Source: Oculatellaceae cyanobacterium bins.114 (GTDB taxonomy: Bacteria > Cyanobacteriota > Cyanobacteriia > Elainellales > Elainellaceae). Taken from it: a stretch of DNA of 64,000 bases. Where the stretch lies: the NCBI GenBank assembly GCA_033764315.1, contig JANRJA010000187.1, positions 1 to 64,000 of the forward strand, read 5' to 3'. Position 1 is the first letter of the stretch, and each line of letters opens with the position of its first letter. Under the pieces are notes generated by a model. It made no database searches. It was not told where the DNA came from and worked only from the letters and a program-made list of their open reading frames with translations. The position numbers and the translations under genes are program-made. Positions 482-12,355 of the stretch are shown here, in pieces.

Positions 482-2227
482 ATGTTGCAAGGATGGATTC
501 AGATTGCGTTGACGCTGCTGATTGTCGTGACGCTCACCCCCTTTTTTGGGCGATATCTGGCAAACCTTTTTAAGGAGGAGAGAACCCTGCTTGATCCAGT
601 TCTCAATCCAGTTGAGCAGGTACTTTACTCACTGATTGGGGTGCGATCGAAAGAGAATATGACAGGCTGGCAATATGCCCGTGCAATTCTCTACAGCAAT
701 GGGGTGATGGGCTTGTTGATTTTCGCCATCATTATGTTCCAGCAGGCTTTGCCATTTAACCCAACGGGGCTTCCGGCTCCTACCTGGGATACGGCACTCC
801 ATACCACGATTTCGTTTATTACCAATACTAACCAGCAGCACTATTCGGGTGAAACCTATCTCAGCTATGCCAGCCAGATGTGGGGGCTGGGCTACCATAT
901 GTTTACTTCTGCCGCAACGGGTTTAGCGGTTGGCATTGCGTTCATCCGAGGGCTGACGGGCAGACCGTTGGGTAATTTCTATGTGGATTTAGTCAGGGCA
1001 ATTACTCGCGTCTTGTTGCCCATCAGTATTGTGGGGGCGATCGCCCTGATCATTGCAGGTGTACCTGAAACGCTGGCGGGTCCGGTTGTGGTGCCCACGC
1101 TGGAAGATCCAGCCATTAGTCAGGCGATCGCGCGGGGTCCTATGGCTCACTTTGAAATCATCAAAGAACTGGGGGAAAATGGCGGCGGCTTCTTTGCGAT
1201 TAATTCCGCCCATCCCTTTGAGAATCCGAATGGGTTTACTAATTTGCTGCAATTAGTCGCAATTTTGGCAATTCCCAGTTCGTTGATTTACGCCTACGGA
1301 GTATTCGCTAACAATATCAAGCAAGCCTGGTTAATTTATCTGATTCCGTTGAGCCTCCTGATTGGCTTTATCATCATAACTGCGATTGGGGAGTACAACG
1401 GCAATCCAGCAGTCAATAGCCTGTTAGGGATGGCTCAAGCTCCCAACCTGGAAGGCAAGGAAGTTCGGTTTGGTTGGGCACAGTCTGCCCTGTATGCAGT
1501 CGTGACAACGGGCACGATGACCGGAGCCATCAATAGTTTGCATGACTCGTTCATGCCCGCAGGCGGATTTGTCACCCTGTCGAATATGCTGCTACAAATC
1601 GTCTTTGGTGGACAGGGAACCGGAACCGCTTACCTGTTTGCCTACCTGATTCTGGCAGTCTTTGTAACGGGATTGATGGTGGGACGCACCCCCGAATTTT
1701 TGGGACGCAAGATTGAGAAACGGGAAGTGGTGCTGGCAAGCTTCTTGATTCTGCTGGTTCACCCGATCGCCATCCTGATTCCCAGTGCGATCGCCCTGGC
1801 ATTCCCAGATCTTCAGGGCATCAGCAACCCCGGTTTTCATGGTTTAACTCAGGTCATTTACGAATACGCTTCCGCTGCCGCCAACAACGGCTCTGGGTTT
1901 GAAGGACTGGCAGATTCGCAACCTTCACCGATCGCGATCGCCGCAGGGGCAACCACCAGTCCAACCGCGCTCTGGTGGAACTTGAGTACCTGTTTTAGCT
2001 TGCTGGCGGGGCGTTACATCCCCATCACCGCTTTACTCTTCTTAGCGGATAGTTTATCTCGCAAGCAACCTGTCCCTGAAACGGCTGGCACGCTACGAAC
2101 TGATACGGGACTGTTTACCGGGGTAACGGCTGGTGTGATTCTGATTCTGGGCGCACTGACCTTTTTCCCCGTCTTAGCACTGGGTCCGATTGCAGAAGCT
2201 TTTCAAATTGTCAAAGGAATTGGGTAG
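482..2227 (+). CDS. kdpA: K+-transporting ATPase subunit A
   Basis: [34 protein letters not shown] and [10 protein letters not shown] motifs; operon context. Confidence 0.98.
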
Positions 2228-2242
2228 GAGTTTTGAGCATTT

Positions 2243-4393
2243 ATGGGAAGTAAAAACGGATCTTCTACATCCTCTCGCCCGATTCGGGTTCCCGGTCGTC
2301 GCCGGGACGATCGCAAACACACTCCCAAAGCCGATCGCAAAGGGCTGTATCAACGCGCCATTCGAGAATCGTTCGTCAAACTCAATCCCCGTGTGGCGGT
2401 GCGAAACCCCGTCATGTTCGTGGTGTGGTTGGGTACGATCGTGACTCTACTGGTTACGATTAATCCCAATCTGTTTGGTACGGTTCAGGCAGATATTGGA
2501 CAACAACGATTACTCAACGGCATCATTACCTTTATTCTGTTTTTCACGATTCTATTTGCCAATTTTGCCGAAGCGGTGGCAGAAGGCAGAGGGAAGGCAC
2601 AGGCAGATGCGCTGCGATCGACCCGCAGTGACACGGTTGCCCGTAAACTGTTACCCGATGGCACGATTCAGGAAGTGAGTTCTACCGAATTGCGCCGGGG
2701 CGATCAGGTGAAAGTGATTGCCGGAGATATGATTCCGGCGGATGGTGATGTGATTCAGGGAATGGGATCGGTGGATGAGTCAGCCATTACGGGAGAATCG
2801 GCTCCTGTGTTGAAACAGCCGGGTACCGATATTGCCAGTTCGGTGACGGGGGGAACTCGGTTGCTCTCCGATGAACTGACGGTGCGGATTACCTCTGATC
2901 CCGGTCAGGGCTTCATCGATCGCATGATTTCCCTGGTCGAAGGAGCCGAGCGCACCAAAACCCCAAACGAAATCGCGTTGACGGTGTTGCTAGCCGTACT
3001 AACTCAGGTGTTTTTGATTGTCGTTGCCACAACACCTTCGATTTCTGGATATATTGCAAACTTTCTAGACAGTGTAACAGGAACCGCAACAGGCAACAGC
3101 TTACGGGCTGGAACCAGCATCGCCATTCTCATTTCCCTGCTGGTGGCTCTGATTCCCACGACGATCGGGGGGTTGTTGAGTGCGATCGGCATTGCTGGGA
3201 TGGATCGAGTCGCTCAGTTTAACGTGATCGCCACCTCTGGACGAGCCGTAGAAGCCTGTGGTGACGTGAATACACTGGTTCTAGATAAAACGGGCACGAT
3301 CACGTTAGGAAACCGTTTGGCGGATGAATTTATCCCCGTCAATGGTCATTCTGTTGAGGAAGTCGCCGATGTTTGTTTAATTGCCAGTGTGTTTGATGAA
3401 ACTCCAGAAGGGCGATCGATTGTTCAATTAGCCCAAAAGCTAGGAGCAAAATTTGACCTGGATGGGCAACCCGCTGAAGGAATTGAGTTCTCGGCGCGAA
3501 CCCGCATGAGCGGCACTGACCTTGATAGTAAGGAGTACCGTAAGGGGGCTGTGGATGCAATTAAAGGATTTGTGCGATCGCGTGGTGGTCAGGTTCCCAC
3601 AACCCTGGATGAAGCCTACGAGCGGGTATCTCGCTTGGGTGGAACGCCTCTTGCTGTCTGTCAGGGCAATGAAATCTACGGTGTAATCTACCTCAAAGAT
3701 ATTGTGAAACCGGGACTGCGAGAACGGTTTGACCAACTCCGACGCATGGGAGTCAAAACCATTATGTTAACTGGAGACAACCGCATTACGGCATCAGTCA
3801 TTGCCCAGGAAGCCGGAGTTGATGACTTCATTGCCGAAGCCACTCCCGAAGACAAAATTGATGTCATTCGCCGTGAACAGGCTCAAGGCAAACTGGTCGC
3901 CATGACCGGAGACGGCACGAATGACGCGCCCGCCCTCGCTCAGGCAAATGTGGGAGTAGCGATGAACTCCGGGACACAAGCCGCCAAAGAAGCCGCCAAT
4001 ATGGTGGATCTGGATTCTGACCCCACTAAGCTGATCGACCTGGTGACGATCGGTAAACAATTACTCATCACCCGTGGCGCATTGACCACTTTTTCGGTTG
4101 CCAATGACATCGCCAAATACTTTGCCATCATTCCCACCATCTTTGCTGCTGCCGGAATTGGTGCGCTCAACATCATGGGCTTAAAGAGTGCCCAGTCTGC
4201 GATCGTCTCTGCCCTGATTTACAACGCTTTGATTATTCCTGTTCTAATTCCACTGGCTTTGAGAGGTGTGCAATTCCGTCCCCTCACCGCCGATCAACTG
4301 CTGCAACGCAATATTTTGATCTTCGGGTTGGGTGGCATTATTGCCCCGTTTATTGCAATTAAGGCGATCGATTTAATTTTGCCGTTTTCTTAG
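2243..4393 (+). CDS. kdpB: K+-transporting P-type ATPase subunit B
   Basis: TGES, DKTGT phosphorylation site, [11 protein letters not shown] motifs. Confidence 0.98.
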
Positions 4394-4418
4394 TTATTCC
4401 CTACTCAAACTCAAAACG

Positions 4419-4610
4419 ATGAACCGCAAACACTCCATTTATTTATTTCTAGCAATTTGTTTCAACCTGGTGGTTGCCCCTGTTGTTTATGCTGCCAGCG
4501 GCAATGAATTTTCTCGCTCTCAAGCCTGGGCATTAGGGCTATTGGGTTTGGGAACCGTTGCACTTTCCGTTTATTTGTTCTTTGTCATGTTTGTACCGGA
4601 GAAGTTCTAA
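4419..4610 (+). CDS. kdpF: KdpF-like small membrane subunit with N-terminal extension (cyanobacterial KdpF/KdpG type)
   Basis: C-terminus LSVYLFFVMFVPEKF matches the KdpF pattern; lies between kdpB and kdpC, stop overlaps the kdpC start. Confidence 0.8.
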   Translation: MNRKHSIYLFLAICFNLVVAPVVYAASGNEFSRSQAWALGLLGLGTVALSVYLFFVMFVPEKF

Positions 4611-5248
4611 TGAGTTTTGCACGCGAGGCAGGTAGAGCCATTCGATCGACCCTGGTACTCTGGGTCATTACCGCTCTGATTTATCCGTTAATCATGGTTG
4701 CCATTGGACAACTGGTTTTTCCCTTTCAGGCAAACGGTAGTATTCTAACCAACGCTCAAGGTCAGCCTGTCGGATCGGCTTTGATTGGGCAGCCCTTTAC
4801 GAGCGATCGCTATTTCAACAGTCGTCCCAGCACCACCAGCTACAGCACCGCTGATCCGACTGATGATGCAGCAGAGATTCTCCGAACAGGGGTTTCTGGG
4901 GCAAGCAACCTGGCTCCCAGCAATCCAGCCTTAATCGACCGCATCAAGGGCAAACCTGATCCTGACCCTGAACAGGCGATCGAGGGCGAAATCCCTAGAT
5001 TGCAAGCCGCAGGAGTCACCCCAACTGCCGACTTAGTTTACACCTCCGGTTCCAGCCTTGACCCCCATATCACACCCGAAGCCGCTAGAGCGCAAATTAC
5101 ACGAGTGGCAACGGCACGGGGATTGCAACCCAATCAACTAGAAGACTTGATCAACCAAAATACAGATGGTCGATTCTTGGGCATCTTTGGCGAACCCGGG
5201 GTGAATGTGTTGAAACTCAACCTGGCTCTTGATGCGGTCGGCAGCTAA
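4610..5248 (+). CDS. kdpC: K+-transporting ATPase subunit C
   Basis: GSALIGQPF, YFNSRPS, SGASNLAPSN, SGSSLDPHIT and VNVLKLNLALD motifs. Confidence 0.97.
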   Translation: MSFAREAGRAIRSTLVLWVITALIYPLIMVAIGQLVFPFQANGSILTNAQGQPVGSALIGQPFTSDRYFNSRPSTTSYSTADPTDDAAEILRTGVSGASNLAPSNPALIDRIKGKPDPDPEQAIEGEIPRLQAAGVTPTADLVYTSGSSLDPHITPEAARAQITRVATARGLQPNQLEDLINQNTDGRFLGIFGEPGVNVLKLNLALDAVGS

Positions 5249-5275
5249 ACCATCCAACTCACAAACCTTTAGCTT

Positions 5276-5596
5276 ATGTGCGCGGAAAGAATCATCGAAC
5301 CCGCCTTGTTTGGAGTCATTATTCAATCAAACAGTCGCCATTGCGGTCTTCGATTATTGGCAATTCAAATCCCAGAACAATGTGCGATTCTGGGGGTAGT
5401 TAGACAAAAACGAATTATTCCAGTCAGTGAAAATCCTTCTGTTTCAATTGGAGATGTCGTTCTGGCGATCGCCCTCCACCCCATGTTTGTTCCTGCCCTC
5501 AAAGTTGCTCTCAAGCGATCGCACCCAGCGTACTATTCGCTCAACGATTGCTTGCTAGAAACACCTGTTGTTCAAAAGTGCTGCCAACTGTCCTGA
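5276..5596 (+). CDS. stand-alone TrkA-C/RCK_C-like domain protein
   Basis: NSRHCGLRL..IQIPEQCAILGVVRQKRIIP..NPSVSIGDVVLAI resembles the RCK_C pattern; tightly packed between kdpC and kdpD. Confidence 0.65.
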   Translation: MCAERIIEPALFGVIIQSNSRHCGLRLLAIQIPEQCAILGVVRQKRIIPVSENPSVSIGDVVLAIALHPMFVPALKVALKRSHPAYYSLNDCLLETPVVQKCCQLS

Positions 5597-5606
5597 ATTC
5601 TAATTT

Positions 5607-6743
5607 ATGTATCACTCATCCAATCCGTCACCTGACAGCACCTACATTCGTCCTGCCTACCGGGGAAAGCACAAAATCTTCATCGGCATGGCTCCCGGTG
5701 TCGGCAAAACGTACCGAATGCTGGAAGAGGGACATCGGCTACGGCAGGAAGGCATTGACGTAGTGATTGGGCTACTTGAAACCCACAATCGACAGGAGAC
5801 TGCACAGCGGGCAGAGGGGCTAGAAATCCTTCCCCGACAGAAGATTGATTGTTCTGGGATCATTCTGTCTGAAATGGACACGGATGCGATCCTGGCTCGC
5901 CAACCGCAACTAGTTCTAATTGATGAACTTGCCCATACCAATGTCCCTGGTTCTCAACGAGAGAAGCGGTATCAAGAAGTAGAAGTCGTTTTGGCAGCCG
6001 GGATTGATGTTTTTTCAACCGTTAATATTCAGCATCTAGAGAGCCTAAACGATCTCGTTGCCCGAATTACAGGGGTAGTAGTGCGAGAGCGAATCCCCGA
6101 TCGCCTGCTGGAAGAAGCCGATCAGGTCGTAGTGATTGATGTTACGCCAGAAACACTAGAGGATCGTCTGAAAGACGGTAAAATCTACGCCCCCGAAAAG
6201 GTTGATCAATCCCTGCAAAACTTCTTCCAGCGACGTAACTTGATTGCTTTAAGGGAACTGGCATTACGAGAAGTCGCTGACAATATTGAGGAAGATGCGC
6301 TTGAGCAAGCATCGAATGGAAGTAAAGCCGATGCACCTTTCTGTAGCATTCATGAACGAGTGTTAGTGTGTGTCTCAACCTATCCCAATGCAATTCAACT
6401 GATTCGACGAGGTGCTCGAATTGCGGGTTATATGCACGCTCCTTTTTACTGTCTATTTGTCGATGACCCCGATCGCTTCTTGACCAAAGCCGAAAGTTTG
6501 CATATTGAAACCTGTGAAAGACTATGTAAAGAGTTTGGTGGAGAGTTTATCCGAGTGAGCGATCAGGATAAAGCAAAAGCGATCGCAGAAGTCGCTAGAG
6601 GCTATTACATTACTCAAATTGTCATTGGTGAAAGCCAACGATCTCGATGGAAGCTGATGTTGAGCGGTTCACTGACTCATAAACTATTGCGATCGCTCAG
6701 AAACATTGACGTTCATATTATTTCAACAGATAAGGGAATCTAA
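5607..6743 (+). CDS. kdpD: short KdpD (KdpD N-terminal domain + USP domain; no TM or kinase domain)
   Basis: GMAPGVGKTY, DELAHTN, STVNIQHLESLND, NLIALRELALR; USP-like C-terminus; no H-box. Confidence 0.93.
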   Translation: MYHSSNPSPDSTYIRPAYRGKHKIFIGMAPGVGKTYRMLEEGHRLRQEGIDVVIGLLETHNRQETAQRAEGLEILPRQKIDCSGIILSEMDTDAILARQPQLVLIDELAHTNVPGSQREKRYQEVEVVLAAGIDVFSTVNIQHLESLNDLVARITGVVVRERIPDRLLEEADQVVVIDVTPETLEDRLKDGKIYAPEKVDQSLQNFFQRRNLIALRELALREVADNIEEDALEQASNGSKADAPFCSIHERVLVCVSTYPNAIQLIRRGARIAGYMHAPFYCLFVDDPDRFLTKAESLHIETCERLCKEFGGEFIRVSDQDKAKAIAEVARGYYITQIVIGESQRSRWKLMLSGSLTHKLLRSLRNIDVHIISTDKGI

Positions 6744-6857: not shown

Positions 6858-7463
6858 TTAGAACGCGATCGCCTCTCCTAAAATGTCTGCAACGGTGACG
6901 TTGAGTTCACCCAACTGGGGCGATCGCACTCTATCCGCCATCGTAAACGTTTGCACGTCTCGGTAAACTGATTCCACCAGTTCTAATACCAGAATGGTTT
7001 GTGTTTGAGGATCAATAATCCAATATTCAGGTATTGCAAGATCCTGGTATTGCGATCGCTTGGCAATGTAGTCGCGACCCTTGCGGTATCTGCAAAGCAG
7101 TGCGCGCTGAATTTCTCCAGGGCTAACGACTTCCACAACTAACAGAGGCGGAGCCATACTCAGCCGAATGGTGTTTCGCCGTTTTAAAAGCTGAATATGC
7201 TCCTCGCGAATAATGGTTAAGTCAGGATAACGATTTTTAGGCTCTCCTCGAACCTCCAGTTCTAAATTGTGCGCTCTTAATCTGCGATATCCAACCAACG
7301 GCAGAAGAACGGACAATAAAAAACTAACTATTTCGGCATTTTCTCCCGATTCTGGCGGCACTTCGACTAATTCTCCATTAAACAGCTCGTACAGGCTATC
7401 TGTCCCATCGTCGTAAGATAGGTACTCTTCAAAGTTGAGGAATCGTAGTTTGGATTGAACCAT
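6858..7463 (-). CDS. Uma2 (DUF820) family PD-(D/E)xK endonuclease-like protein with an 8-aa insertion
   Basis: YELFNGELVEVPP, RYPDL, LVVEVVSPG, IPEYWIIDP. Confidence 0.9.
   Translation of the reverse strand: MVQSKLRFLNFEEYLSYDDGTDSLYELFNGELVEVPPESGENAEIVSFLLSVLLPLVGYRRLRAHNLELEVRGEPKNRYPDLTIIREEHIQLLKRRNTIRLSMAPPLLVVEVVSPGEIQRALLCRYRKGRDYIAKRSQYQDLAIPEYWIIDPQTQTILVLELVESVYRDVQTFTMADRVRSPQLGELNVTVADILGEAIAF
7074..7105. mobile_element. small dispersed repeat inserted in frame into a HIP1 site
   Basis: GCGA-[CCCTTGCGGTATCTGCAAAGCAGTG]-CGC; net +24 nt relative to GCGATCGC; two mini-hairpins. Confidence 0.65.
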
Positions 7464-7644
7464 GAGGGTGAGGAGAGAGGAGAGGGGCGATCGCGTTCCA
7501 GTGCTTTTATTGTATAACTCTCTTTTTTACCGTTGCTGTTTACGAAAGTGTTTGCAACCCAATGTGAAGACTCCCCCTACGTTATAACCTTTGCACCGTC
7601 TGGAGCTTGTGCGTATGATGGAGAAAATTCTTTGAGCAACCGAT

Positions 7645-8109
7645 ATGTTTGGTAAAAAGCCCCCCTCTGAGCCATCTAAATCGCAACCACCCAATCAATC
7701 GCAAAGCCTCAGCAATGTATCGGTCACGGGTGGCATGGTGCAATTGGGGCAGGCAGGTGGCAATCTCCAGCAAAATCAGAGTGGAGAGTTGCAAACTCAG
7801 CAGCAAGGGATTATAGCAACCGAGGTAGTCTCGCTGTTAGAACAGTTAGAATCTGCAATCAAAGGATCTGCGCTCAGTTCCGCTCAGCAAGAAGAACTGC
7901 TCGACTATCTGCGACCTGCTAAGCGGGAAGCCGCGAAGGAAACCCCTCAAAAGGAACTGGTGGGGCAAAATTTGAAGCAGGTGAGTGAAACGATGAAAAC
8001 GCTGAAAGACACCACCGAGGCCGGGAAAAGCTTGTGGCAAACGGGAGCCGAAATCTTTAAAACGGTTGCACCCTGGGTTGGCGTTGCTGCTGCATTTTTT
8101 GGGCTTTAA
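7645..8109 (+). CDS. small protein with N-terminal RHIM-like/amyloid motif and C-terminal helical domain ending in a hydrophobic helix; putative NLR effector
   Basis: QSQSLSNVSVTGGMVQLGQAGGNLQQ, then amphipathic helices, then WQTGAEIFKTVAPWVGVAAAFFGL. The function is inferred. Confidence 0.75.
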   Translation: MFGKKPPSEPSKSQPPNQSQSLSNVSVTGGMVQLGQAGGNLQQNQSGELQTQQQGIIATEVVSLLEQLESAIKGSALSSAQQEELLDYLRPAKREAAKETPQKELVGQNLKQVSETMKTLKDTTEAGKSLWQTGAEIFKTVAPWVGVAAAFFGL

Positions 8110-8153
8110 TCGCGATCGGGATTTAGGCATACGAATAAAATGCGATTTGTTGG

Positions 8154-8182
8154 ATAGGGGCTTGGCAGTGCCAAGCCCGTAC
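8154..8182. repeat. REP-like palindrome between the putative effector and NACHT genes
   Basis: GGGCTTGGCA-G-TGCCAAGCCC inverted repeat, flanked by ATAG and GTAC. Confidence 0.65.
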
Positions 8183-8231
8183 AGAGGAGGCGATCGCTCT
8201 ACAAGAGTGATATTCAAAATAGGCGTAGAGC

Positions 8232-10250
8232 ATGGCATCTCAAGATCAAAATATTGATGGCAGCAGAATTGATCATAGTGACCTGCGAATGGGGCAGGCA
8301 GATGGTGATTTAATTCAAGGCGATCGCAATACAATCACCAAGATCTATGTCGATCTCGTTGGGCAACAGCAACCCCAATGGACGGAAGGACAACAGCGCA
8401 TTTTGCAACGGATACAGCAGGATGTAAAGACACGGCTAGAGTTCACCCTGAATGACGATGAGGTGTTGATTCCGTTGCAGTTGCGAGATCAGGGCAAGCA
8501 GATCAGCCGAGGTTCCTTAAGACTGCGACGCAAACTGATAACGCCCCAGACGCAAGTAACCGATCTCAAACAAGAAATTTTAGAGGTATTTTGTCGCGCT
8601 GATGTTCAGGGGAAGCTACTCATTCTAGGCACGCCAGGAGCCGGAAAAACGACTACTCTGCTAACACTCGCACAAGAATTGTTAGCTGAAGCTTTGAAGA
8701 CACCCGGTACAACGATTCCGGTGATCTTTGAACTATCGACATGGACACCACAACATCGATCGCTTCAAGATTGGTTAATTGCCCAACTTAAGGAGCTATT
8801 CAACCTATCGCCCCAAGAAGGTGCTCAATGGCTAGAGAACGAGTTACTGTTGCCCTTACTGGATGGGTTAGATGAATTGGGCATGGAACGGCAACAGCAG
8901 TGCATTGCTGCGTTAAATACCTTCGCTCAACACTATCCGCGAGTGGTGGTGTGTTGCCGTGAGCAAGAATACCGCGAGGCAGGTGCCACTCTTGATGCGT
9001 TGCCGGGGCAGGTGTGTCTGGAACCCCTCACCGATCAGCAAATTGAACAGTATCTGCACGATCTGGGATTGGAGGCACTGTGGCACGACATCCAAACCTC
9101 TGCGACGATGCGCCCGATGCTAGAACCTGATGATGATGGCAATCTTGGCATTCTGCGGGTGCCCTTGCTGTTGAGCATGGCAGCCCTGACGTATGAGGGG
9201 CAACCGTTTACCAACCGAGCCGAGTTATATGAGGCGTATGTGGAGCAGCGGTTGCACTATGACACCCGCAAAGATGAGCGAGGCTGGCGGAGCAACCAAA
9301 TGCGAGAATGGGCATACAAAACCTCTGCCCAAGAACCCGATCGACAACAAACCCTACGAACGTTGCGGTGGATAGCGCGACAATTGCAGGACAATAACGC
9401 TGTAGAACTGCTGATTGAACGCATCCAACCCCGTTGGTTAGAGAAACCCCAGGCACGACGACATTATCGGCTGATTTTTGGGCTGATTGGTGGGCTGATT
9501 GGTGGGCTGATTGGTGGGCTGATTGGTGGGCTGATTGGTGGGCTGATTTTTGGGCTGATTGTTGGGCTGATTTTTGGGCTGATTGGTGGGCTTGATAATA
9601 TTGCACCTGTTGAGTCATTCAAAATTTCGATGTCGCACGACGTGCGACGAGAAATTTTTGCGAGTTTAAAACAGTATTTGATTGGTGGGCTGATTGTTGG
9701 GCTGATTGTTGTGCTGATTGTTGTGCTGATTGGTGGGCTGATTGGTGGGCTGATTGGTGGGCTGACTGGTGGGCTGATTGGTGGGCTGATTGGTGGGCTG
9801 AAGCAAGATTTGCAACTGCGATCGCGCCCTAACCAGGGCATCTGGAATTCACTGCAAAGTATGGTGTGGACAACTGCCTTCAGCTATCCTCTCGGCATTG
9901 TTTTTATCTTTGGACTTACAGAACTTCCCCGCATTGTTGCTCAAGGCGTTAGCCAAAAAGACAGTGTAGGAACAATTCTCGATGCTCTCTGGGCAGCTTT
10001 CCCACCCTTTTTAGTCACAGGCATCTTCGGGGCGTTGCTCTTTGGCTTTGCGGCAGGAGGTGGGCTTGCCTGCATTCAGCATCTCTGCCTCCGGTTCGTT
10101 CTCTGGCAGAGCGGCATTGCCCCCTGGAATCTGGCGCGGTTTCTCAACTATTGCGTCGAGCGGCGTTTGCTGCAACGGGTGGGGGGTCGCTATCGCTTCT
10201 TACACCGTGAGTTGCTCGACCATTTTGCAGTTCAGAACACGACAATTTGA
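8232..10250 (+). CDS. NACHT (STAND/NLR-like) NTPase with N-terminal Q/G/D motif and multi-pass membrane region containing GLIG repeats
   Basis: Walker [10 protein letters not shown], Walker [16 protein letters not shown] motif, C-terminal [13 protein letters not shown]. Confidence 0.92.
9468..9593 (+). repeat. 12-bp coding tandem repeat GGGCTGATTGGT (GLIG), array 1, about 10 units
   Basis: Read directly from the sequence. Confidence 0.95.
9675..9800 (+). repeat. 12-bp coding tandem repeat ([12 protein letters not shown]), array 2, about 10 units
   Basis: Read directly from the sequence. Confidence 0.95.
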
Positions 10251-10582
10251 CCGTTGCACTAGATCATTTGAGTGCGGAACACAACGCTTCGAGTTCAGAA
10301 CACGAATCATGCAGTTCAGAACACGACGATTTGACTTCTGAGGTTGACCCGTTGAGTTCAGAACCTAAATCATGCAGTTCAGAACACGACGATTTGACTT
10401 CTGAGGTTGACCCGTTGAGTTCAGAACCCAAATCATGCAGTTCAGAACACGACAATTGGACTTCTGAGGTTGACTCGTTGAGTTCAGAACCCAAATCATG
10501 CAGTTCAGAACACGACAATTGGACTTCTAAGGTTGACCCGTTGAGTTTACAACTCAAACCGTGCTGTTTATAACACAATGGT
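10226..10582. repeat. 21-bp subunit array organised into 63-bp higher-order repeats
   Basis: Units TGCAGTTCAGAACACGACGAT / TTGACTTCTGAGGTTGACCCG / TTGAGTTCAGAACCCAAATCA; four near-identical 63-mers at 10310-10561. Confidence 0.93.
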
Positions 10583-10974: not shown

Positions 10975-11613
10975 TCAAACTCCTGCAAATCCTTTAGCCG
11001 CGAGGGAGATTTCATGCCACGAAGGAGGGCGATAATCGCGGTTCACCCGTTGGTCTACATAACCGACCAGATCAGGCAGATCTTCGCTGCGAATTTCTCG
11101 ATTGAGAAACTGTTGCAGTTTGCTTTCCCAACCACTGGGATAATCACGAATGACAGGATGTTTGACAAGAACGGGCTGATAGTTTGCCTGTTGCATATCC
11201 ACAATGATGTCAAGCTTGAGAACTGCCAGCGATCGCACAAAAATTCCGGTTGCTGCAACGTTAAAGCCATCGTTTAACGATTTCTGTTTCAGCACAACCA
11301 CAAAATGTCCACCCGGTGGAATATCGTAAGGAACGTAGCTGTGCTCTTGGATGGGTTTAATCTCAACGTTGTAGCCCTTTGTGAGTCCTGCTTCTAGGGT
11401 TAACCCGTCATATTCTTGCTCAGGATGAGGAACGAAGATGGTGAATTGGTGTGGCGTTAACCACGGTGTTGTCATCGGTTCGTTAGTGTCATCTTGCTGC
11501 ATCTTATAGAGCTTGCGTAATTCTTGCCCCACATAGCTTTCCTGATTGCACAAATTAATCAGCGAGATGTTGAGTACACATTGGTCAAACTGAGTTGCGC
11601 CTAAGATTCTCAT
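10975..11613 (-). CDS. conserved hypothetical protein, likely cotranscribed with the NafY/NifX-like gene
   Basis: 212-aa ORF 10 bp downstream of 11624-12355 on the same strand. Confidence 0.75.
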   Translation of the reverse strand: MRILGATQFDQCVLNISLINLCNQESYVGQELRKLYKMQQDDTNEPMTTPWLTPHQFTIFVPHPEQEYDGLTLEAGLTKGYNVEIKPIQEHSYVPYDIPPGGHFVVVLKQKSLNDGFNVAATGIFVRSLAVLKLDIIVDMQQANYQPVLVKHPVIRDYPSGWESKLQQFLNREIRSEDLPDLVGYVDQRVNRDYRPPSWHEISLAAKGFAGV

Positions 11614-11623
11614 GATGATTCAC

Positions 11624-12355
11624 CTATACCAGAGATTTGTAGTTCTTAACGCGATCGCCTGCTGCAACACCCAAAATCTTGGCAAGCCAGGGGGGTGGTG
11701 AGATAGCGATCGCTTGCTGCAATTGCTGCAAAACCTCTCTCGCTGCGCCCCCCGCTTCTTGTTTCATGGGATAAATGCCTGCCTGAACCACTTTTGCCGC
11801 AGCGGGGCCGCCAATCGCCACAATGTAGAGCACATGACAATCGCGAATTAAGCTAACGCGAAACGCATTGCGATCTTCTGATAAATCAGCTTCTAATGCA
11901 GAGCGAATATCCACCAGTCGCAGTTCAGTTGCCGACAGTTGATAGATCAGATAACGCAAACAGGAGCCAAAATGAGCATCTAGCTGCTCTTGGTTGTTAG
12001 ACGCAACCGCAACTCGAATGGAACCCGGTAATTCACCTTCCTGGTATGGCTCAATAGGTGGCAACTGGTCTCTCTCATCCGTTTCTCCCCAAAGGATTCT
12101 CACCGCTTTTTTAAAGGCTGCAATGTCTTCAGCATTCGCATCTTCACCGTCTTCTTCGCCATCTAGCTCATAGGTTTGTCCTAGACCCGTCTTTAATTTA
12201 GTAACAGTAATTTTAGTTAACGCTTCCTCATCAATTTCATCTCCCAAATTGTCTTGTAACATCTCAATCATTTCACTGATAGAGACTCCCGTTAAAGCTC
12301 GGGTTGCTAGCGCAATCCTGAGGGCGACTTCATTTGAAATCCGCTGTTCACTCAT
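11624..12355 (-). CDS. dinitrogenase FeMo-cofactor carrier protein, NafY/NifX/NifY family, with N-terminal extension
   Basis: IRVAVASNNQEQLDAHFGSC, DCHVLYIVAIGGPAAAKVVQAGIYP, PPPWLAKILG. Confidence 0.85.
   Translation of the reverse strand: MSEQRISNEVALRIALATRALTGVSISEMIEMLQDNLGDEIDEEALTKITVTKLKTGLGQTYELDGEEDGEDANAEDIAAFKKAVRILWGETDERDQLPPIEPYQEGELPGSIRVAVASNNQEQLDAHFGSCLRYLIYQLSATELRLVDIRSALEADLSEDRNAFRVSLIRDCHVLYIVAIGGPAAAKVVQAGIYPMKQEAGGAAREVLQQLQQAIAISPPPWLAKILGVAAGDRVKNYKSLV

Follow-up and report, generated by a model that had tools for sequence, protein, structure and literature searches.

Within the first 64,000 nucleotides (positions 1 to 64,000, forward strand) of contig JANRJA010000187.1 of Oculatellaceae cyanobacterium bins.114 (assembly GCA_033764315.1), the stretch that was analysed here and is called the window in the following, two neighbouring genes on the same strand code for a small protein and for a NACHT ATPase. 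The open reading frame (ORF) of the small protein (7645..8109, +; 154 residues) is separated by a spacer of 122 nucleotides (nt) from the ORF of the NACHT protein (8232..10250, +; 672 residues; Pfam NACHT), which belongs to a paralogue group that we term type B. Both proteins carry a related glutamine-rich motif near the N-terminus. In the small protein, hereafter also called the partner, the motif covers residues 18-47 (7696..7785, +), as defined by the in-register match to the NACHT N-terminus, and in the NACHT protein it covers residues 4-33 (8241..8330, +), as defined by alignment and profile comparison with the partner. The motif of the partner is followed by a four-helix bundle domain predicted by AlphaFold2 (AF2; residues 58-154; 7816..8106, +). 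In the NACHT protein a P-loop NTPase core (residues 130-276, the stretch matched by Pfam; 8619..9059, +), a hydrophobic block of GLIG(G) repeats with predicted membrane segments according to its Kyte-Doolittle profile (residues about 412-620; 9465..10091, +) and a conserved C-terminal tail with columns that are invariant in 25 orthologues (residues 621-666; 10092..10229, +) follow one another. We assume, with moderate confidence, that the pair constitutes a two-gene switch of the NOD-like receptor (NLR) type, in which the motif couples the NACHT protein to a partner effector.

The shared motif and its co-variation

Residues 18-43 of the small protein align without gaps to residues 4-29 of the NACHT protein with 8/26 identities and a BLOSUM62 score of 38, and this is the best ungapped segment pair of the two proteins. 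An earlier note on this DNA had described the same ORFs and the same alignment, and both were recovered exactly. Composition-preserving shuffles reached the score of 38 in 0/500 cases when the N-terminal 60 residues of each protein were compared, in 6/500 cases when the complete small protein was set against residues 1-100 of the NACHT protein, and in 8/100 cases for the two whole proteins. The match within the window alone is moderately significant, and without comparative data the case is suggestive at best. Comparison of the two N-terminal family alignments by hhalign placed residues 17-45 of the small protein on residues 3-31 of the NACHT protein, which is the register of the earlier note, with a probability of 92.9% (P = 3.7e-7).

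Comparative data were obtained from 42 loci that were found by scanning one genome per species with the small protein. The window and 37 of these loci gave an alignment of 38 pairs; the five loci left out have both genes interrupted (L005), no NACHT gene (L026), a fragment of 59 residues (L036) or a degraded small gene (L040 and L042). Both N-termini share, in one register, the columns Q1, Q3, a hydrophobic residue at position 5, V15, Q16, Q19, A20, G21, R or G at position 22, D23 and Q28. The motif comprises about 30 residues and can be written as QxQxΦ...VQxxQAG(R/G)D..., with VQxxQAG(R/G)D as the conserved core. Over 37 unique gene pairs a mean of 10.7 of 32 columns is identical in register, and the pair of the window is, with 8/32, among the weaker examples. 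Glutamine, asparagine, glycine and serine together account for 61% of the partner motif and 52% of the NACHT motif versus 20.5% elsewhere, lysine and proline for 0.4% and 1.2% versus 11.9%, and leucine for 6.5% and 4.2% versus 14.4%. This is the composition of motifs of the BASS type, the published bacterial amyloid signalling motifs, with enrichment of Q, N and G (V, I) and depletion of K, P and L. A hidden Markov model (HMM) of the motif, built from the orthologues, matches 80 of 120 listed NACHT homologues, and 79 of these matches start within the first 25 residues.

The RHIM of RIPK1 and RIPK3 is a short homotypic motif that forms amyloid; its hydrophobic-Q-hydrophobic-G core follows the tetrad pattern [IV]Q[IVLC]G. 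The earlier note had labelled the motif RHIM-like and had read VQLG in the small protein as a canonical RHIM core. VQLG is present in the small protein of the window; as a family feature the tetrad does not hold, since it occurs in only 10/38 partners and 1/38 NACHTs. No match to Pfam RHIM (PF12721) or to another amyloid-motif family was found for the window proteins at E <= 1 or for 23 homologues of the small protein at E <= 10, searches in which the HMMER filters may drop very weak matches. We have therefore given up the label in favour of the core VQxxQAG(R/G)D, which by eye looks nearer to BASS1 and BASS2. The RHIM-like BASS3 examples in the PMC8086366 supplement (G[VI]Q[VI]GDHNTQTNTF) also differ from the present motif downstream of the tetrad.

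The two copies of the motif vary together. Over the 37 unique pairs, true partners were more similar than shuffled partners in 5000/5000 trials (mean BLOSUM score 42.4 versus 34.1 ± 1.4; identity 10.7 versus 9.7 ± 0.2), and this excess persisted after removal of the three loci L037, L038 and L041, in which three residues are deleted at the same motif position in both proteins and both proteins read GQQxQAGRDAIA. Column 17 is occupied by Q in both proteins or by L/M in both in 25 cases, with 12.6 expected; the combination Q/Q is found in the group of Nostocales, Microcystis and Chamaesiphon as well as in the L037 group, and the remaining pairs have L/M in both proteins. Private matches of single pairs were seen in L032 (NSKL), L033 (VQ[VI]AQA) and L036 (RDA[MI]V). 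Identical residues are encoded by identical codons in 190/401 cases with 168.9 expected, and gene conversion was therefore rejected as a general source of the similarity. The likeness is thus preserved in the protein sequence without the help of continuing gene conversion; possible exceptions are L032 (8/8), L033 (10/12) and L037 (11/17), where codon identity is raised. According to the earlier note, homologous neighbouring NACHTs that lack the motif, motifs that do not co-vary and an alignment no better than composition-shuffled controls would each have spoken against its proposal; the neighbouring NACHTs do carry the motif, 0/5000 partner shuffles reached the observed score and 0/500 shuffles did so for the N-termini. 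We consider it quite probable that a specific, motif-mediated coupling exists between the small protein and the NACHT protein.

The two genes are also linked. A NACHT homologue lies directly 3' of the small gene on the same strand in 39/42 loci, of which 36 were detected by tblastn and three (L032, L033 and L036) as N-terminal NACHT fragments at contig ends. Two of the three loci without a NACHT gene have a truncated or frameshifted small gene (L040 and L042), and in the third, the low-coverage bin L026, the small gene is intact and no NACHT lies within 2 kb. Both genes lie a median of 75 nt apart, with at most 150 nt between them in 29/38 pairs. The two-gene NACHT module that had been proposed from the window alone is well borne out by this linkage and by the co-varying motif common to the NACHT N-terminus and its neighbour. 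Other genes around the pair in the window, described at the end of this text, are not conserved in the 42 loci (Uma2 0/42, the ORF at 10975 0/42, the NifX-like gene 0/42, KdpC 1/42). When the 64-kb window and the 42 loci (within 10 kb) were searched with the motif HMM, the second NACHT of L014 was the only motif-bearing ORF besides the pair. Both genes of L005 (6875-9001) are interrupted within or beside the motif-coding part, and the NACHT is shortened in L002 and L031 (303 residues; split ORFs); pseudogenes or errors of the metagenome bins are possible in these cases.

The two proteins, their relatives and fusions

The NACHT domain (PF05729; 32.3 bits versus a cut-off of 26.7; E = 1.1e-7; residues 130-276) is the sole Pfam domain of the 672-residue protein. 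Walker A (GTPGAGKT) is located at residues 133-140 and Walker B (LLDGLDE) at residues 209-215, and G133, P135, G136, G138, K139, T140, D211, G212, L213, D214, E215 and R243 are invariant in 25 orthologues. With a score above the gathering threshold and invariant GxPGxGKT and DGLDE sequences the protein is a member of the NACHT-type STAND NTPases. Ahead of the ATPase domain the N-terminus carries only the motif, as the earlier note had correctly stated. Pfam detected no TPR or WD repeats; in their place the protein has the hydrophobic GLIG-repeat block 412-620 with hydrophobic Kyte-Doolittle windows at 412-460, 475-521 and 585-620 and several predicted membrane segments. Part of this block is encoded by a 12-nt tandem repeat (GGCTGATTGGTG; 9469-9801; 26.5 copies; 71% matches). 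The block differs in length and copy number among the NACHT orthologues, is N-masked in L012, and might be a fast-changing membrane segment. The tail that follows has many invariant columns from L620 to F656 in the 25 orthologues, and it may resemble the winged-helix end of STAND modules. A sequence search of the PDB with the NACHT protein gave P-loop matches only.

The NACHT family is large, with 2262 homologues at E <= 0.001 among 7999 candidates scored; the orthologues are 36-73% identical to the NACHT protein of the window. In the phylogenetic tree, the NACHTs of the window and of L009 and the second NACHT of L014 form clade B (SH-aLRT 99), the sister of the common type A, the tree of which follows taxonomy with Nostocales as one clade. 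The locus L014 (61-4561) has both types in tandem, the small gene being followed by a type A NACHT (876-3095) and then by a type B NACHT (from 3143), and the motif is present in both. Window and L009 have kept only the type B NACHT beside the small gene.

For the small protein 212 homologues were found at E <= 0.01 among 308 candidates. The protein is conserved from end to end, including the N-terminal motif, in Oculatella, Leptolyngbya, Nodosilinea, Crinalium, Microcystis and others, with 60-95% identity between cyanobacterial orders, and no family of Pfam or NCBIfam matches it. The start MFGKK (window 7645-7659) is nearly invariant in the orthologue group, in which F2 and K4 are invariant and K5 is present in at least 90%; it is missing from the wider family outside this group. 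PDC-M14B, a protein of a PADLOC candidate system, matches residues 35-141 with E = 2.3e-9, and this match covers only the C-terminal 100 positions of the model. Membership in PDC-M14 does not follow, since only PDC-M14B matches and the NACHT protein matches no PDC-M14A model of PADLOC.

AF2, run with 23 sequences, gave a confidence score (pLDDT) below 50 over most of residues 1-53, which predicts a disordered N-terminal arm. The predicted helices 58-74, 79-96, 103-123, 125-145 and 149-152 build a four-helix bundle of residues 58-152, with pLDDT values above 90 over residues 61-140 and falling from 86 to 77 over the last 14 residues. A hydrophobic stretch is found at 140-154, and the last approximately 15 residues (APWVGVAAAFFGL) form a hydrophobic tail; in 40 distant relatives P..K, W144 and G146 are nearly invariant (tail P-W-x-G). 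The best PDB match of the small-protein profile by sequence had E = 0.27, and the clusters of the ESM Atlas nearest to the small protein consist of unnamed cyanobacterial proteins. TCAD2 (PF19971) had a score of 0.88 in the ESM Atlas. The top rows of a fold search of the PDB with the bundle were generic helical bundles (among them the N-terminal bundle of clostridial glucosyltransferase toxins, E = 0.55, and the DGR protein Avd, E = 0.88) and count as leads without significance.

Paralogous systems are present on plasmids, where tblastn found 16 records, next to relaxases, integrases and insertion sequence (IS) elements. On plasmid2 of Nostoc sp. HK-01 the partner has the sequence ...VQIGGMAGRDINVTQNQ, and the gene after it has ...VQIGGIAGRDLYVNQIQ. 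On pREB6 of Acaryochloris the partner reads ...VQIGGIAGGDQTVTQTQ, and the frame just 5' of the annotated NACHT start reads ...VQIGGVAGRDLEVTQIQ; an in-frame stop precedes the latter sequence, so that the true start of this NACHT is ambiguous. When the partner and NACHT N-termini of three chromosomal and three plasmid systems were compared with each other in a 6 x 6 matrix, the own partner was the best one in 5/6 rows and 5/6 columns, and the diagonal sum was reached by 2/720 permutations. On pCC7120epsilon of Nostoc sp. PCC 7120 (L043; 1569-11427) a motif of the type GG.Q.AQGN.N.Q is common to five adjacent proteins. It lies near the C-terminus of a pentapeptide protein, at the N-terminus of a NACHT, of a 144-residue motif-bundle protein and of a 325-residue protein, and near the C-terminus of a 1302-residue P-loop protein; the copies of the pentapeptide protein and of the 144-residue protein are almost identical. 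Similar motif relays were found on plasmid p057_H of Nostoc sp. C057 (L046; 5225-14041) and on pANACY.03 of Anabaena cylindrica (L047; 5297-8107), where the C-terminal end of a pentapeptide protein consists of (QGDNNxAV)n and the bundle module, and the same repeat stands at the start of the next gene. A second motif of L046, QF..G..NAD.V...QIGG.I.N, connects the N-terminus of a NACHT with two pentapeptide proteins. Elsewhere in L047 (8899-10602), a protein of 145 residues has ...LGKLAEKIGLVVQSGGRVSIQNF as its C-terminal end, and MTKNIEGIANKIGIYAPQGQISIEN begins the next gene; these sequences resemble BASS5 examples in the PMC8086366 supplement, and this is likely a Bell/BASS-type pair of the classical kind.

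The motif-bundle module is not restricted to stand-alone proteins. A profile search of 1.84 billion representatives gave 310 proteins at E <= 0.001, many of which are stand-alone proteins of about 140-150 residues with the same layout, and many others are longer and carry the module at the C-terminus. In 32 longer relatives scanned for domains N-terminal to the module, pentapeptide repeats were found in 12, CHAT in five, TIR in three, a helix-turn-helix domain plus TRADD-like_N in one and PMT in one; no Pfam domain was detected ahead of the module in 10/32. A separate search for longer homologues yielded one protein only, which is weak evidence. In P0134 (268 residues) the first approximately 100 residues of the small protein run into the middle of a NACHT of the present family, presumably through a deletion that fused the genes or through an assembly error. 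According to a precomputed Pfam column for the 120 listed NACHT relatives, 13 of them have EAD10, four TIR and one CHAT, and in those whose first 75 residues were inspected the extra domain is at the N-terminus in the place of the motif. The motif thus holds the slot of an effector or adaptor domain in related NACHTs.

Comparison with known systems and interpretation

Signalling by amyloids between an NLR and the product of a neighbouring gene is established in fungi, proposed for bacterial Bell/BASS pairs and shown for one antiphage system of E. coli. Dyrka et al. 2020 (bioRxiv 10.1101/2020.01.06.895854) describe the Bell/BASS motifs as enriched in Q, N and G (V, I) and depleted in K, P and L, report ordered amyloid fibrils for BASS1 and call BASS1 and BASS2 specific to Actinobacteria. 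The present pair has in common with Bell/BASS-NLR pairs the adjacent and collinear genes, a motif of about 25-30 residues on the N-terminus of a NACHT or NB-ARC protein and on a small helical partner, the Q/N/G-rich and K/P/L-poor composition, the occurrence in cyanobacteria and the presence of the same motifs beside TIR and CHAT. Motifs of one pair are, here as there, more alike than motifs of different pairs (0/5000 shuffles and 2/720 permutations, the shuffles ignoring phylogeny). The disordered motif and helical bundle of the partner, together with the motif composition, fit the published bacterial amyloid signalling motifs. However, the partner carries the motif at its N-terminus, whereas it is C-terminal in the published pairs. 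The hydrophobic stretch of the partner is a tail at the C-terminal end of the predicted four-helix bundle, whereas Bell has an N-terminal hydrophobic helix. With its inverted AF2 layout and without a matching Pfam family the partner does not belong to the Bell domains. Bell/BASS NLRs have TPR or WD repeats in contrast to the predicted membrane block of the present NACHT, and the present pair differs from them also by its vertical inheritance and high conservation. The BASS screen of 2020 considered only the C-termini of Bell proteins and therefore could not have found a motif-first layout; in a review of 2026, BASS is still located C-terminally on the helical domain.

In the supplement PMC8086366, BASS1 reads ...R[VI]YQAGRDxxITER and BASS2 reads ...NTISGG.....V[IV]Q[AG]RD[IF].G. 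By eye, the present family (...ISGG...VQxGQAGRD...Q.Q) resembles both, BASS1 in the QAGRD core and BASS2 in ISGG...VxQ[AG]RD. The strings GQAGRD, TQAGRD, AGRDAVSF, IGGIAGRD, GQAGGD and VQQGQAG had 0 occurrences in the portion of the BASS data file searched (PMC8086366). No description of the family was found in the literature searched for such a system or in the full texts searched for QAGRD, GQAGRD and QAGGD; the supplementary tables and figures of the 2020 BASS paper may contain related examples, e.g. TIR or CHAT cases.

In the fungal NWD2/HET-S system and related NLR/effector pairs, in common with the present pair, a copy of the N-terminal motif of the NLR is also found in the product of the neighbouring gene, beside a helical membrane-targeting domain, and the proposed order of oligomerisation, templating and effector activation is the same. 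The sequences are unrelated, however, in HET-S the HeLo domain is N-terminal and the prion-forming domain C-terminal, and fungal NLRs have WD, TPR or ANK repeats and are encoded at polymorphic allorecognition loci, unlike the conserved pair described here. Bab/Agp (BASS11) of E. coli is a two-gene antiphage system with experimentally shown abortive-infection defence (bioRxiv 10.1101/2024.11.07.622273) and serves as a precedent for pairs of this kind. It also combines a small helical cell-death protein with a large sensor via a common terminal amyloid motif, but the motif is at the C-terminus of Bab and the genes are located in a prophage defence island. Conflict systems with NTPases coupled by effector-associated domains (EADs; Kaur et al. 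2020, PMC7159879) resemble the present pair in their logic of coupling, in that the NTPase and the effectors next to it carry the same adaptor element and that copies in adjacent genes are the closest relatives. EAD10 is found on 13/120 listed NACHT relatives, and TIR, CHAT and TRADD-N of the fusions come from the same effector pool; according to the same paper, all these domains are typical of systems of conflict and cell death. In contrast to the folded, alpha-helical EADs, the shared element is here a short, Q-rich motif, which is predicted to be disordered, and no EAD family of Pfam was detected in either protein of the window, which leaves the pair outside this class. EACC1 (PMC7159879), a domain with a single transmembrane segment that is paired with caspases in Actinobacteria, was rejected as a counterpart.

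A switch of the following kind can be proposed for the pair. The NACHT protein would be anchored in the membrane by its GLIG-repeat block and, in response to a trigger, would bind nucleotide and oligomerise. The clustered N-terminal motifs may then fold together into a beta-rich, amyloid-like nucleus, which would recruit the partner and template its matching motif. The bundles of the partners would assemble or be released, their hydrophobic tails could act on the membrane, and cell death or growth arrest would be the output. We infer the direct contact between the motifs, its amyloid nature, the membrane-damaging output and the trigger. To amyloid-like templating between both motifs we give an approximately even chance, and to membrane damage as output a smaller one. 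A more far-reaching version, which we regard as possible but doubtful, is that the pair is an ancient, vertically inherited and membrane-integral NLR switch in the core gene set of many filamentous and colonial cyanobacteria, in which prion-like templating of the BASS1/2 type fires a previously unrecognised four-helix-bundle executioner that also recurs as a common C-terminal end of TIR, CHAT, TRADD-N and pentapeptide proteins in motif relays. The pair would then provide a first candidate for how regulated cell death is brought about in cyanobacteria, and its NACHT would be the first NLR with amyloid signalling that is sited in a membrane.

A two-gene switch of this type would bring several new aspects. 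The partner would represent an effector family with an inverted layout, in which the motif comes first and the bundle with the hydrophobic tail comes last, and the NACHT protein a kind of NLR with a predicted membrane block instead of a repeat sensor as C-terminal part. A motif that is BASS1/2-like by eye would occur in cyanobacteria, though BASS1 and BASS2 have been reported as Actinobacteria-specific. The inheritance is unusual, as the pair is passed on vertically, is conserved in several orders of cyanobacteria and is set among housekeeping genes instead of being scattered over defence islands. Neither the N-terminal place of the motif in the partner, nor the membrane block of the NACHT without a repeat sensor, nor the conservation across orders among housekeeping genes had been noticed in the earlier note. 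Nature also offers specificity variants, namely pair-specific motifs, the co-deletion and two NACHT paralogues served by one partner, and these make the templating idea testable. For the regulated cell death of filamentous and bloom-forming cyanobacteria, which is poorly understood, the pair provides a concrete candidate.

Several points weigh against such a switch. The partner is not Bell and has an inverted layout, so that the analogy to the activation of HET-S or Bell is loose, and the resemblance of the motif to BASS1 and BASS2 was judged by eye. The hydrophobic tail of the partner, with about 13-15 residues, is short for a membrane-spanning helix, and the fold search of the PDB with the bundle gave 0 matches at E <= 0.001. 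Since relatedness is not taken into account by the shuffle tests, the independent co-changes are few, with roughly six lineages. The pair is set among housekeeping genes (kdpABC, psaL, ycf48, acnB, purD), which is atypical of a mobile defence island, it is strongly conserved (60-95% for the small protein across orders), and the NACHT tree tracks taxonomy. Vertical inheritance, strong conservation and the housekeeping setting are no less compatible with a constitutive role in the cell than with a suicide or defence switch, and a constitutive, non-amyloid complex with a housekeeping role is the main rival, though we regard it as unlikely. In such a stable heteromer the motif would be an ordinary homotypic or beta-augmentation interface, and the small protein would be bound to the NACHT N-terminus at all times. 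As a subunit it would regulate or inhibit a membrane-associated ATPase with a housekeeping task, e.g. in membrane or thylakoid maintenance, or serve as its adaptor, with neither templating nor cell death. Besides the conservation of the small protein, the taxonomic order of the type A tree and the location outside defence islands, the tight operon-like spacing suits co-assembly, and co-variation is expected of any specific interface. A permanent complex is less compatible with the composition and length of the motif, which are those of amyloid signalling motifs, and with the arm, which is predicted to be disordered and not part of the fold. The same holds true for the presence of TIR, CHAT or EAD10 in the same slot of related NACHTs, for the fusion of the module to TIR, CHAT and TRADD-N, and for the plasmid paralogues beside relaxases, integrases and IS elements.

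It is improbable, in our view, that the motif is a common tag by which one protease, chaperone, kinase or targeting machinery reads both proteins while the proteins themselves do not touch. Co-variation of two proteins can come via a shared third partner, and the five adjacent motif-bearing proteins on pCC7120epsilon as well as the N-terminal, C-terminal or internal motifs on other plasmids would agree with a tag. However, motif versions are pair-specific even among paralogous systems, so that each system would need its own third factor; apart from the second NACHT of L014 no third motif-bearing ORF was found in the window or within 10 kb in the 42 loci, and no gene of the neighbourhood is conserved beyond the pair. 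Strictly N-terminal signals such as secretion signals or N-degrons are excluded by the internal position of the motif in the fusions. Very improbable is a lack of any functional coupling, in which the similarity would simply follow from a low-complexity, Q-rich composition or be left over from a duplication or gene conversion between the neighbouring genes. The match in the window is modest (8/26 identities, the score being reached by 8/100 whole-protein shuffles), both segments are rich in Q, S and G, and codon identity is raised in L032 (8/8), L033 (10/12) and L037 (11/17), all of which would suit a relic or by-product. Against this stand the 0/500 N-terminal shuffles, the profile-profile comparison (P = 3.7e-7), an overall codon identity near expectation (190 versus 168.9 of 401) and a gene order kept in 39/42 loci. 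Moreover, the register, the columns Q1, Q3, V15, Q16, Q19, A20, G21 and D23 and the co-changes persist across orders, and the loci are not near-copies of one another (NACHT identities of 36-73% to the protein of the window), so that an origin without coupling is largely refuted.

Surroundings of the gene pair

A promoter-like site (TTTGCA-18-TATGAT; 7590..7619, +) is located 25 nt 5' of the small gene; it was found by a consensus scan only and is weak with 9/12 matches. The same scan gave no terminator-like site between the small gene and the NACHT gene. The spacer contains a perfect inverted repeat of 9 bp (GGCTTGGCA G TGCCAAGCC; 8150-8175) with no T-run behind it, which is flanked on both sides by HIP1-like GCGATCGC sites, as read from the sequence only. 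Upstream of the pair, a kdpA-kdpB-kdpC cluster is followed by a KdpD-N/Usp protein without kinase part (482-6743, +), and a gene for a Uma2-family endonuclease lies at 6858-7463 (-). Downstream, a gene for a NifX/DIMCO_N-type protein is located at 11624-12355 (-). Just 3' of the NACHT stop codon, a tandem repeat of 63 nt extends over 10291-10576 (4.5 copies; 92% matches), and the ORFs across it on both strands look like repeat artefacts.

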